Shown: piece by piece, positions 7,988-10,529 of the stretch | Layout: each line of letters begins with the position of its first letter | Numbering within the stretch: position 1 is the first letter of the stretch | Source of the DNA: Klebsiella phage vB_Kpn_K54_rec1 | Reading direction: 5' to 3' (one strand) | Sequence record: PQ569687.1 | Length of the DNA stretch: 64,000 nucleotides | The notes under the pieces: model-generated | The model's database searches: none | Seen by the model: only the letters and a program-made list of their open reading frames with translations | What the model was told of the DNA's origin: nothing | Translations under genes and position numbers: made by a program

Positions 7988-9667
7988 TTACAGTTGAGCG
8001 GCTGCGCGTTCACGAATCGTTGTCAGATCTTCATCGACAATAAGTTTACCGTTGTAGAACACACGACGCAGTTCGTTATCGTCAGACTGTACATCTTCAA
8101 GCTGACAATTGTCAATCAGTTCTAACTGACCGAACATGTTGCGAACAACTTTGAGGAAACCTTTCGCAGATTTCTTACTGAGGTCGGTCTTAGGCTCTTT
8201 GACAACCATGATTTGCTGACCATCAATAACAGCGCCAGTTGCTTTCACAGCCATACCAAGTGAATCACGGGTTGTATACTGGGTGGTAAAGGAACCAACA
8301 CCGTACACGATATTGCTGGATGCAAAGCCTTTATCTTTCAGACGTTCAAAGATGTCTTTTGCACGAGCAACAGTGATGGAATCACCATAGATCAGACCAA
8401 TATGACTATCAAGAACCTTATAGCCCTTGGAATTAACTTCACCACCGAAAATATCCCATAAACATTGGACTGCACCTACAGCTTCATGGTAAGGAACTTC
8501 ATCTGTTTCATCAATAACATCAAAACCTGAAGACTGCTTGACACGATAGAACTTACCAAGAACCTGAACAAGTTCATATCCGGCTTCCGCATTGGCATCA
8601 TAAGCTTCTTCAAAGCTTGCATAATCACCGCCATCTGTGTAGTAACCAGCAATGATATGCTCAGGGACACCGGAGTCCGGGCGGAATACAACACGTCCAT
8701 CGCGAGCCATGATTTCCTGTTTCAGGATCGCTGCTGCTTTGGTGATAATCGCCCAGAAGTCATAACTGTCTGCCACGTAGGAAACAAAACCTTTAGGGAA
8801 AATTTCCGTAATGTAGCGTTTCATGAATTCAACTTCAGCCAAGAAACGTGATTCGTCCAGAGTCAGTTCCGGGTGTTCACCTTGTAGGCGACCGACGATA
8901 AATCCGATGTTCGTGGTTGCAACAGAGTGTTCAGATGCAGGAATAGAACCAGCAACGAACTTGCCTTTCATGTTGTAATAACGACGAGCATACAGAATCG
9001 CTGGGATAGTGTCTGTACCCATAGAGTTGATCAGTTGACCAAATTCGCTCTGTGCTGCGTCGTGAGTACCAGCTTCACCGCGATAGGCGAAGCAGTGGTT
9101 CTGGAATGCAACATGGTCGTTGTTATCACAGGTCTCAGCAGCCCATTTTTCAGACAGCTTGCGATACTGCCAGAACGTCGTTGCAGTTGTGATAGTTTTC
9201 CAGGTTTCTGCGGAGATCACACTTTCCAGAAAGTTAGGCAACCAGTAAAAATCCGGGTGCGTATTCTGGATTGTAAACATTGGGACCTGAACCGGAGAAA
9301 GCGTTCCTTCTGGAAGAGCACGGATTTCCAGAGGAAGATAACCGAGATCATGAAGAGCCTCAAAGCCCCAAGTTTCTACCATGCCAATGCCGATGCTGGA
9401 GTCGCAAACCTCACGATAATCAGCAACCGCTTCTTCTTTCGGGAGGTTGAAGAAGTTATTGTTGAACATGTCGATAAGGAACCACTTAATAAATCCCTGA
9501 AGGCCAGCAAACATGACACGCTGGTCGTTATCAGCGAAGTGGATGAAGTGCTTCGCATTACGAGGGGTCATGTTATCCTGAACAATTTCAGAACGTTTAT
9601 CATACATGGAGATGTGTGAAGGTTTGTAAAAGTCAGCGAACAGGATAGGACTTTCTTGATTAAGCAT
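7988..9667 (-). CDS. nicotinamide phosphoribosyltransferase-family protein (NAMPT/NadV-like, a NARP1 'Namat' candidate)
   Basis: It has an N-terminal ILFADFYKPSH and an NAMPT-like overall layout. The start was set at the Met preceded by AAGGAG rather than the upstream Met at 9721. Confidence 0.75.
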   Translation of the reverse strand: MLNQESPILFADFYKPSHISMYDKRSEIVQDNMTPRNAKHFIHFADNDQRVMFAGLQGFIKWFLIDMFNNNFFNLPKEEAVADYREVCDSSIGIGMVETWGFEALHDLGYLPLEIRALPEGTLSPVQVPMFTIQNTHPDFYWLPNFLESVISAETWKTITTATTFWQYRKLSEKWAAETCDNNDHVAFQNHCFAYRGEAGTHDAAQSEFGQLINSMGTDTIPAILYARRYYNMKGKFVAGSIPASEHSVATTNIGFIVGRLQGEHPELTLDESRFLAEVEFMKRYITEIFPKGFVSYVADSYDFWAIITKAAAILKQEIMARDGRVVFRPDSGVPEHIIAGYYTDGGDYASFEEAYDANAEAGYELVQVLGKFYRVKQSSGFDVIDETDEVPYHEAVGAVQCLWDIFGGEVNSKGYKVLDSHIGLIYGDSITVARAKDIFERLKDKGFASSNIVYGVGSFTTQYTTRDSLGMAVKATGAVIDGQQIMVVKEPKTDLSKKSAKGFLKVVRNMFGQLELIDNCQLEDVQSDDNELRRVFYNGKLIVDEDLTTIRERAAAQL

Positions 9668-9728
9668 GTTTTGTTTCTCCTTTGTTTGTTTAATAGGGCG
9701 ATTGTACGCCCACTTATTCATTTGTCAA

Positions 9729-10529
9729 TTAAAAGTTTTCGGTCCAGTCGTGGTATGCGTAGATTTCATCAACGCCGCCTTCGTAGATAACTTCTTTACC
9801 GAAGGAAAAGATGCCGTGAGTTACGTAAAGAATAACACGTTTTGCACCATTTTCTTTCAAGGATTGTGCAAGAGCGATGAAGGTGCGCCCACCATCACAG
9901 ATATCATCCACGATAACACACTCTCGGTCTTTCACATCACCGAAGAATGTTGTGCCAGTGATCTGTCCTGTGACAACATTACGGACCTTGCCTGCTTCAA
10001 CTAAAGGTAGTCGCATACGGTCTGCCACCTTCTGTGCTTTTTTACGAGCGCCAGCGTCGGGAGCAACAATGGTGACATCTTTTCCAGCCAGTTGGTCATG
10101 GAATTCAGCAACTAATATGTCTTGTCCACGAATTTTTACATTATCAAGCAAAGCAGCAGAAACATCGCTATGTGGGTCATCAACAATAACTTCATCAAAA
10201 CCGAGTGAATTCACAATTCTTGCGAATACTTTGATTGACAATGCTTCGCCAGGTTGCATGATGCGGTCTTGACGTGCATATGGGATGTATGGAAGGTTCA
10301 GTGTGAATTTAGCATTTGTATGAAGATTCTCAAGTCGAGAACATGCATCAACTAACATGCACAAGGCCATAACATCTGAAGAATTTTTAATTTTTGCAGT
10401 TATTTCCACAAAACCAATGCTACCCTTCGGCGCATGTTGGAGATCAATTTTCACGTTTTCCTCGCCACCCTTGAAGGTAGAGTGGTCAACAGGCACTACT
10501 AGGTTGTTCAGACGAAGTTCTAAACTCAT
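9729..10529 (-). CDS. ribose-phosphate pyrophosphokinase (Prs) family protein (a NARP1 'Adps' candidate)
   Basis: It carries a PRPP-binding signature VIVDDICDGGRT. At 266 aa it is shorter than cellular Prs. The same AAGGAGAAACAAA leader precedes the NAMPT-like gene. Confidence 0.7.
   Translation of the reverse strand: MSLELRLNNLVVPVDHSTFKGGEENVKIDLQHAPKGSIGFVEITAKIKNSSDVMALCMLVDACSRLENLHTNAKFTLNLPYIPYARQDRIMQPGEALSIKVFARIVNSLGFDEVIVDDPHSDVSAALLDNVKIRGQDILVAEFHDQLAGKDVTIVAPDAGARKKAQKVADRMRLPLVEAGKVRNVVTGQITGTTFFGDVKDRECVIVDDICDGGRTFIALAQSLKENGAKRVILYVTHGIFSFGKEVIYEGGVDEIYAYHDWTENF

Follow-up and report, generated by a model that had tools for sequence, protein, structure and literature searches.

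A gene pair of Klebsiella phage vB_Kpn_K54_rec1 that very probably encodes the NAD+ reconstitution module NARP1

Two adjacent genes of Klebsiella phage vB_Kpn_K54_rec1, one of the Prs family and one of the Nampt family, raise the question of which chemistry they encode: ordinary salvage by a true Prs and a true Nampt, or NARP1, the Adps and Namat module defined from Bas63 genes 79-80 and their SPbetaL1 homologues (described in 2024). We addressed this question in a stretch of 64,000 nucleotides from record PQ569687.1 (hereafter, the window), which is a 100% match to Klebsiella phage vB_Kpl_K54lambda1.1.1 and the K54_rec phages, of Mydovirus type.

A preliminary description of this DNA had reported a Prs-family gene directly upstream of a NAMPT-family gene on the same strand. 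Both open reading frames were recovered, with the strand corrected to minus. The upstream gene, adps (9729..10529), encodes a Prs-like protein of 266 amino acids, indeed shorter than cellular Prs (315 amino acids in E. coli) and retaining, as described, the VDDICDGGRT loop, here at residues 207-216. It carries the Pfam domains PF13793, PF00156, and PF14572 and belongs to phrog_619 (E=5e-93). The downstream gene, namat (7988..9667), encodes a Nampt-like protein of 559 amino acids with PF04095, assigned to phrog_448 (E=4e-194). The mechanically called frame for this gene starts at 9721 and ends at 7988 (577 amino acids), and we rejected that ATG, which has no Shine-Dalgarno sequence and sits within a spacer holding a promoter-like site and a hairpin. 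The true start is the ATG at 9667 (MLNQESP...): a Shine-Dalgarno sequence precedes it, PQ569688 annotates the gene from there, and it agrees with the KB57 protein in the table of Osterman et al. The adps ATG overlaps the stop codon of the gene upstream (ATGA), and 61 nucleotides separate adps from namat. The same order on one strand is found in Bas63, SPbetaL1, ICP1, KB57, and SSE121. Homologues of the Prs-like protein were found in 1573 phage records, and Namat adjoins 97% of Adps-clade genes according to the NARP1 discovery paper (Osterman et al.), so the pairing is far beyond chance. A PADLOC run returned only trivial matches to the PRT motif.

To which enzymes does the Prs-like protein belong? 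Pairwise identity fails as a discriminator between Adps and Prs for the Firmicute enzymes, and we therefore used a tree and profile HMMs. We built a neighbour-joining tree from 23 sequences and bootstrapped it 500 times; it separated the five cellular Prs sampled, with 100% support, from all phage Adps-like proteins, a group that holds the four validated Adps of ICP1, Bas63, SPbetaL1, and FADO together with the Prs-like protein. The preliminary description had proposed comparing both proteins by HMM with characterised Adps and Namat and with Prs and NAMPT; for the Prs-like protein, this comparison gave 205 bits on a model of validated Adps versus 121 bits on a model of cellular Prs. On the NCBIfam equivalog models for Prs it reached only 80-120 bits, well below cut-offs of 296-536; the validated Adps score similarly, far under the cut-off, and E. 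coli Prs obtains 533 bits on the subfamily model NF002320 (cut-off 297). As its best equivalog score, 120 bits, falls short of the 296 required and the C-terminal module is missing, we rejected the protein as a canonical PRPP synthetase. It does pass the lenient TIGR01251 subfamily cut-off (156 versus 113), a pass that explains its labelling as Prs by pipelines. Its pairwise scores to SPbetaL1 Adps, from a Firmicute phage, and to E. coli Prs are similar (86 versus 90 bits), so that its clade membership rests on a small tree and on the enzymes of Gram-negative phages. Taken in this way, the comparisons support placing the protein in the phage Adps clade, apart from cellular Prs.

The C-terminus and the catalytic residues point in the same direction. 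The protein stops three residues past ...HDWT, where E. coli Prs runs on for about 40 more, and thus does not have the alpha11-alpha12 module of Prs, a C-terminal filament and regulatory element whose absence is a defining signature of Adps in the structural paper. The catalytic lysine is conserved (K181, equivalent to ICP1 K185 and SPbetaL1 K162), as are the acceptor-site residues R87, H121, D161, D212, D213, and D216 (here R86, H120, D158, D208, D209, and D212), and the adenine-contacting F18 has its counterpart in F19. The PP loop CDGGRT and F217 exactly match Bas63 Adps, which is validated in vivo. Two ligand contacts of ICP1 are changed, F92 to M91 and F223 to A219; Bas63 also differs at both (Met and Glu).

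The Nampt-like protein scored 414.8 bits to SPbetaL1 Namat (PDB 9W5X/9W5W) and 399 bits to Bas63 Namat. Its scores to Nampts were lower: 163 bits for the KVP40 enzyme, 177 for that of Xanthomonas, and about 170 for human NAMPT. Structures of the two kinds of enzyme superpose at about 1 Angstrom, so a fold search could not tell them apart, and the NCBIfam model NF006629, which all reference proteins passed, was discarded as a discriminator. The catalytic core is shared, with SPbetaL1 D13, Y15, F189, R192, D215, His245, R306, and D308 corresponding to D12, Y14, F193, R196, D219, H247, R329, and D331, and all residues contacting nicotinamide and ribose-phosphate are kept along with the catalytic histidine. 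The published, Namat-specific adenine-clamp motif, here GSFTTQYTTRD (G458-D468), in which F460, Y464, T466, R467, and D468 are present, stands where KVP40 Nampt has GGGLLQQLDRD and Xanthomonas Nampt has GGALLQKVDRD; position 5 of the clamp helix motif, usually aromatic, is a threonine. The selectivity-clamp loop of a Namat is recognized by Arg, Lys, or Tyr at its third position together with a stacking residue. The corresponding loop here, TPRNAK39-H40-F41, exceeds that of KVP40 Nampt in length; by sequence it belongs to the Bas63 type (K42-W43-F44 there) but with His40 in place of Trp as the would-be stacking residue.

The clamp motif, the Adps clade, and the missing C-terminal module of Prs thus support, as far as sequence can show, the NARP1 architecture put forward in the preliminary description, and we consider it very probable that the pair is a NARP1 module of Adps and Namat. 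By the scheme known for this pathway, NAD+-depleting host defenses with SIR2, TIR, or SEFIR effectors would split NAD+ into ADP-ribose and nicotinamide. Adps, using ATP, would pyrophosphorylate the distal ribose of ADP-ribose at C1'', yielding ADPR-PP, and Namat would exchange the added pyrophosphate for nicotinamide, giving NAD+ directly. The phage would then be able to replicate despite type I Thoeris, DSR1/2, SIR2-HerA, SEFIR, and similar systems. For K54_rec1, we infer these enzyme activities and the anti-defense phenotype from the protein sequences.

Could the pair instead carry out ordinary salvage, a true Prs and a true Nampt supplying NMN that becomes NAD+ through a phage NadR-like enzyme or host NadR/PncC, in the manner of NARP2? 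Pfam, NCBIfam, and database records do call the proteins Prs and Nampt, the genome encodes elsewhere a NadR-like protein (NMNAT plus AAA_28) and a PnuC-like transporter, and Namat enzymes keep the activity of forming NMN from PRPP in vitro. Against this, SPbetaL1 Adps yielded no product from ribose-5-phosphate in a Prs-type assay, and Bas63 overcame defense even in a host mutated in both pncC and nadR. The K54_rec1 proteins themselves group with Adps and Namat enzymes rather than with Prs or KVP40 Nampt, the Namat clamp residues occupy the site where Nampts have GGGLLQ, and the regulatory module of Prs is gone. Furthermore, phage enzymes of the Nampt clade were accompanied by an Nmnat, and by no Prs homologue, in a 2024 survey, and the NadR-like gene of this phage lies outside the window, far from the operon. 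We therefore regard ordinary salvage as an improbable account of the pair. Since Namat forms NMN with PRPP and the phage has a NadR-like NMN adenylyltransferase, the NMN route may nevertheless operate as a side activity.

A different doubt arises from the history of adps. Nucleotide identity to Klebsiella phage KB57 falls from 99-100% to about 70-76% within the gene, near 9850. At the protein level, identity to KB57 is 85% for Adps and 99.6% for Namat. One could thus see the pair as a decaying or repurposed remnant with a mosaic adps that contains a recombination junction, either non-working or limited to housekeeping nucleotide supply. Yet both frames are intact and preceded by strong Shine-Dalgarno sequences, all tested catalytic residues are kept, and the divergent adps allele differs from KB57 in about 27% of nucleotides but in only 15% of amino acids. 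This ratio fits an exchange between functional adps copies under purifying selection, not decay, and leaves the remnant a very slim chance. Together with its relatives KNP2, BIS47, and Mydo (Mydovirus, Vequintavirinae), KB57 shares the genomic position, gene order, and spacer of the NARP1 pair; its spacer is 100% identical and the DNA downstream of 9800 is 98-100% identical. In contrast, its adps allele is divergent across most of the gene (about 73% at the nucleotide level), the upstream gene is unrelated, and the ribosome-binding leader of adps is different.

These relatives also settle the standing of the locus. Orthologues from KB57, KNP2, BIS47, Mydo, and SSE121 appear in Tables S1 and S2 of Osterman et al., with Namat within 10 genes or marked "Adps-associated", the label given to KB57 Namat. 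The preliminary description had offered the locus as a new candidate member of NARP1; it is not new, its lineage being in the published catalogue already.

An identical leader had been described before both genes, and the 13-mer AAGGAGAAACAAA indeed occurs exactly twice in the 64 kb, on the minus strand at 9670-9682 and 10531-10543, just upstream of the two starts; allowing one mismatch, four copies were found versus 0.25 expected by chance. The common stretch is in fact 15 nucleotides long, AAAGGAGAAACAAAA (10530..10544 before adps, minus strand), and its distance to the ATG differs by one nucleotide between the genes. The shared leader consists of a strong Shine-Dalgarno sequence and a spacer rich in A. 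Relatives do not conserve it: KB57 adps carries a different leader, and we therefore rejected the shared one as a regulatory signature.

The 61-nucleotide spacer between the genes (9668..9728, minus strand) contains, besides this leader, a promoter-like TTGACA-16-TACAAT at 9728..9701 (11/12 match in a promoter scan) and a hairpin at 9696-9711 with the -10 hexamer in its loop (folding energy -11.1 kcal/mol, z = -2.4). The SSE121 spacer retains TTGACA plus a hairpin differing in sequence. Promoter and hairpin function are putative. Six nucleotides past the namat stop, at 7961..7982 on the minus strand, lies a terminator-like hairpin, AAGCCCC-UUCG-GGGGCUU followed by UUCU (fold -16.1 kcal/mol, z = -2.75), which narrowly fails the T-run rule of a consensus scan and probably marks the end of the transcription unit. 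Leftward transcription would start from a divergent promoter region near 11.7 kb and terminate directly past namat, possibly with an additional promoter in front of namat.

Several other genes of this phage relate to NAD+. NadR-like (RNK-NMNAT), PnuC-like, and Poa1p-like macrodomain genes are encoded in the genome, all outside the window (the last at 12443-13054 of PQ569688), and a CobB-like sirtuin gene lies inside it, 6 kb from the NARP1 pair. The NadR-like and PnuC-like genes are of NARP3 type but about 2 kb apart, not adjacent. In NARP1-AP, a Macro-domain (Poa1p-like) gene lies within two genes of the operon; among the five neighboring frames that we scanned, none encodes a Macro domain, and since the operon has no such gene, it is plain NARP1 rather than NARP1-AP. 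We tentatively raise the idea, which we consider rather unlikely, that the pair belongs to an NAD+ toolkit spread over the genome, in which the unlinked Poa1p-like macrodomain could provide Adpp in trans. If true, this would amount to a distributed NARP1-AP that can deal with ADPR-1''-phosphate from aRES, and published surveys, limited to within two genes of NARP1, would have missed unlinked Adpp. The products of the CobB-like sirtuin, nicotinamide and O-acetyl-ADP-ribose, could likewise feed NARP1 once the latter is deacetylated by a macrodomain.

The discovery value of the locus is small, as NARP1 has been described, structures exist for both enzymes, and the lineage is catalogued. It is of practical use for annotation: public records of this phage and its relatives use "ribose-phosphate pyrophosphokinase" and "nicotinamide phosphoribosyl transferase", names that point to the wrong chemistry. 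In Klebsiella phage therapy, a phage with this module would be expected to resist NAD+-depleting defenses such as type I Thoeris, DSR, and SIR2-HerA. The presence in one phage of NARP1, NadR-like, PnuC-like, and Poa1p-like macrodomain genes, and a sirtuin could also guide a survey of unlinked Adpp.

With E. coli Prs, a class I PRPP synthetase, the Prs-like protein shares the motifs of the two-domain PRT fold as well as catalytic lysine and aspartate residues. The two are only 33% identical, however, and differ in the PP loop (DTGGT-L in E. coli, DGGRT-F here) and in DLHA versus DPHS; the alpha11-alpha12 module is absent from the phage protein. NARP2 of Vibrio phage KVP40, which combines the Nampt NadV with the Nmnat NatV, has in common with the K54_rec1 pair the Nampt fold, the catalytic core, and the purpose of restoring NAD+. 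Unlike Namat, KVP40 NadV (32.5% identity) prefers PRPP and shows GGGLLQ instead of the aromatic clamp; its loop is short, and no Prs-like protein accompanies it. Given the Namat clamp, the 163 bits to NadV against 415 to Namat, and the adjacent Adps, we rejected NARP2 for this pair. A search of the window for an Nmnat found a sole nucleotidyltransferase (44663-45733), which is RlaP-type and not Nmnat, and a "hydrolase" checked for the same function gave just a sub-threshold PTH2 match.

Among NARP1 systems, the Adps and Namat of SPbetaL1 are validated in vitro, with Namat structures 9W5X and 9W5W, and ICP1 Adps is known from structures and kinetics. SPbetaL1 Namat R306 and its clamp residues F392 and Y396 correspond to R329, F460, and Y464 in K54_rec1 Namat. 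Identity is 36-39% for Adps of SPbetaL1 and ICP1 and 47% for Namat; SPbetaL1 Namat stacks the adenine with Arg40, whereas K54_rec1 Namat has Lys39-His40 and is 68 amino acids longer. Bas63, the founding system validated in vivo, has the same adps-then-namat order and an identical PP loop, DDICDGGRTF. Both Adps have Met at the position of ICP1 F92, and both Namats have a loop of the Lys-aromatic-Phe type and a large insertion past the RPDSG strand. The two systems differ in their phages (Felixounavirus versus Mydovirus), in the loop residue (Trp in Bas63, His here), and in the length of Adps, which is 27 amino acids shorter in K54_rec1; their Adps are 40% identical and their Namats 43%.

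Our analysis of the Klebsiella myovirus window centered on two adjacent genes on the minus strand: an open reading frame (ORF) for a Prs-like protein of 266 aa (adps, 9729-10529) and, after a spacer of 61 nt, an ORF for a Nampt-like protein of 559 aa (namat, 7988-9667). The region 7700-10900 is 100% identical to vB_Kpl_K54lambda1.1.1 (OY979426) and vB_Kpn_K54_rec2-6, and 91-94% identical to KNP2, KB57, BIS47, and Mydo; KB57 (Klebsiella phage vB_KpnM_KB57) is classified in Vequintavirinae, genus Mydovirus. A mechanical ORF list extended namat to an ATG at 9721, a candidate start within the adps-namat spacer and without a Shine-Dalgarno sequence, which we rejected. 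The annotated start is at 9667 (MLNQESP), in agreement with the published KB57 protein. The Prs-like protein carries the Pfam Prs domains PF13793, PF00156, and PF14572 and belongs to phrog_619, and its neighbor carries PF04095 (NAPRTase/Nampt) and belongs to phrog_448. The VDDICDGGRT sequence was found at residues 207-216 of the Prs-like protein, and the window contains exactly two copies of the 13-mer AAGGAGAAACAAA, one upstream of each gene. The paired ORFs, their families, this motif, and the twin 13-mer therefore confirm the preliminary description, which had reported such a gene pair on one strand with an identical leader. This leader consists of a strong Shine-Dalgarno sequence and an A-rich spacer, and it is not a family feature, since the KB57 adps leader differs.

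The adps start codon overlaps the stop codon of an upstream HTH/T5orf172 gene (10526-11107) as ATGA. Two near-consensus promoter-like sites in divergent orientation (11694-11753) precede that gene and an HTH gene (11091-11453). The adps-namat spacer contains a sigma-70-like promoter-like site (TTGACA-16-TACAAT, 11/12 match, 9696-9728, minus strand), whose -10 hexamer falls in the loop of a hairpin. At the equivalent spacer site, the more distant phage SSE121 keeps TTGACA (-35) and a hairpin of different sequence; with both elements kept in the same place, namat may have a second promoter. Six nt past the namat stop codon, a GC-rich UUCG hairpin with a U-rich tail (7961-7982, z = -2.75) probably ends the transcription unit. 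Downstream of this unit lie 13 minus-strand tRNA genes (1-6737; Lys, two Ser, Gln, Glu, Gly, Ile, Tyr, Cys, Leu, Thr, and two Met), which carry no annotation in PQ569688, the record of an identical phage. A calcineurin-like metallophosphoesterase gene (PF00149) is located at 13003-13596 on the plus strand, and a gene of the metallophosphoesterase family is also found at one edge of the SSE121 NARP1 locus examined.

NARP1 was defined from genes 79-80 of Bas63, annotated as Prs and Nampt. Bas63 lacking these genes was sensitised to SIR2-HerA, Bas63 itself continued to overcome defense when the host was mutated in both pncC and nadR, and ADPR-PP was detected in infected cells (Osterman et al., bioRxiv 10.1101/2024.02.11.579819). 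The purified SPbetaL1 homologues converted ADP-ribose and ATP to ADPR-PP and, with nicotinamide, to NAD+, and no product was obtained from the Prs-like enzyme in a Prs-type assay. Adps (ADP-ribose pyrophosphate synthetase) forms a phage-specific clade with Namat (nicotinamide ADP-ribose transferase) nearby in 97% of members, and NARP2 (KVP40 NadV + NatV) relies on a separate, PRPP-preferring Nampt clade (bioRxiv 10.1101/2024.02.11.579819).

Several comparisons indicate that the Prs-like protein is an Adps. Its identity is 40% to Bas63 Adps, 39% to ICP1, 36% to SPbetaL1, 33% to FADO, and 33% to E. coli Prs, and pairwise scores alone do not separate Firmicute Adps from Prs. In a tree of 18 phage Adps-like proteins and five cellular Prs (500 bootstraps), the split between cellular Prs and all others received 100% support, and the window protein was nested among validated Adps. 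The HMM comparison proposed in the preliminary description likewise favored Adps, with 205 bits for a model of four validated Adps versus 121 bits for one of five Prs. Among NCBIfam models, the lenient TIGR01251 subfamily model (156 bits) is the only one whose cut-off the protein clears, and its scores are too low for every Prs equivalog model (best 120, cut-off 296). Validated Adps show the same pattern, in contrast to E. coli Prs, which reaches 533 bits against NF002320, a Prs subfamily model with a cut-off of 297. The rules derived from ICP1 Adps comprise a catalytic Lys185, conserved acceptor residues, and a remodelled PP loop, with loss of the Prs C-terminal alpha11-alpha12 module as the "defining signature" (PMC13586617). 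Here, the catalytic lysine maps to K181 and the acceptor-site residues are R86, H120, D158, D208, D209, and D212. Bas63 Adps has the same PP loop, CDGGRT, and the same Phe after it (F217 here). The protein ends three residues past HDWT and therefore lacks the alpha11-alpha12 module. F92 and F223 of ICP1 Adps are replaced by Met and Ala; neither Phe is kept in Bas63 Adps, an enzyme functional in vivo.

The Nampt-like protein is similarly predicted to be a Namat. Its best PDB matches were 9W5X and 9W5W (E=4e-123, 415 bits), which are SPbetaL1 Namat, and the same structural paper describes an adenine "selectivity clamp" as the Namat sequence rule (PMC12774641). In the comparison with Nampts, also suggested beforehand, the protein scored 399 bits to Bas63 Namat, versus 163 bits to KVP40 NadV and, in the PDB search, 177 bits to Xanthomonas and ~170 bits to human Nampt. 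The helix motif, G458-S-F-T-T-Q-Y-T-T-R-D468, places F460 and Y464 on F392 and Y396 of SPbetaL1 Namat, whereas KVP40 has GGGLLQQLDRD and Xanthomonas GGALLQKVDRD. The loop TPRNAK39-H40-F41 is of the Bas63 type (K42-W43-F44) and longer than that of KVP40. Small deviations are Thr at helix motif position 5 and a putative stacking residue that is His, not Trp. KB57 Namat, listed as "Adps-associated" in Table S2 (Osterman et al., bioRxiv 10.1101/2024.02.11.579819), shares 99.6% identity with the window protein. Two further PDB entries labeled 'nicotinamide phosphoribosyltransferase', 9KE8 and 9KEO, scored 357 bits against 7988-9667, between Namats and Nampts, and have an intermediate helix motif (GAQTYQRNTRD).

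The sole serious alternative, a conventional salvage route of Prs and Nampt, gains a little from the published production of NMN by Namat in vitro and from a NadR-like NMNAT encoded elsewhere in the phage. Clade placement, motifs, and C-terminal truncation argue against this route, which is therefore very improbable; the same evidence agrees with the earlier proposal of a candidate NARP1 member, and the lineage is already published as one. Decay of the pair is unlikely, because both ORFs and every tested catalytic residue are intact, including the Namat core (D12, Y14, F193, R196, D219, H247, R329, and D331).

Other genes of the phage also relate to NAD+. Within the divergent transcription unit, at a distance of 6 kb from NARP1, is the gene for a CobB-like sirtuin (16066-16842, plus strand; PF02146, E=1e-23; best PDB match E. 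coli CobB 1S5P), for which PADLOC gave no defense-type Sir2 match; its activity would use up NAD+ and yield free nicotinamide. In PQ569688, outside the window, a NadR-like protein (CTP_transf_like + AAA_28, NMNAT-RNK) and a PnuC-like transporter (PF04973) are encoded at 35724-36812 and 38801-39508. These NARP3-type components are ~2 kb apart rather than adjacent, and the phage would thus combine NARP1 with NARP3-like genes. The same record encodes, unlinked to NARP1, a Poa1p-like Macro-domain 'phosphatase' (12443-13054) that matches yeast Poa1p (6LFU, E=6e-6), an ADP-ribose 1''-phosphate phosphatase, and resembles T4 Tk.4; 2948 phage records contain homologues. The protein could serve as an Adpp in trans; published NARP1-AP surveys covered only genes within two of the operon. 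Together, the sirtuin, NadR-like, PnuC-like, and macrodomain genes suggest a possible multi-layered NAD+ toolkit.

Nucleotide identity to KB57 revealed a recombination junction inside adps: it is 98-100% from 7100 to ~9800 and ~70-76% over the remaining 5' part of the gene. The HTH/T5orf172 gene upstream of adps is unrelated to its KB57 counterpart. At the protein level, identity to KB57 is 85% for Adps and 99.6% for Namat. No Nmnat was found in the window and no Macro domain in the five neighboring ORFs scanned; by the published criterion of a Macro-domain gene within two genes, the locus is thus classified as a predicted plain NARP1 and not NARP1-AP, the variant with an Adpp phosphatase gene. 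The NARP1 family, its mechanism, its structures, and the membership of this phage lineage are already published, and the sole new item at the locus is the divergent adps allele.
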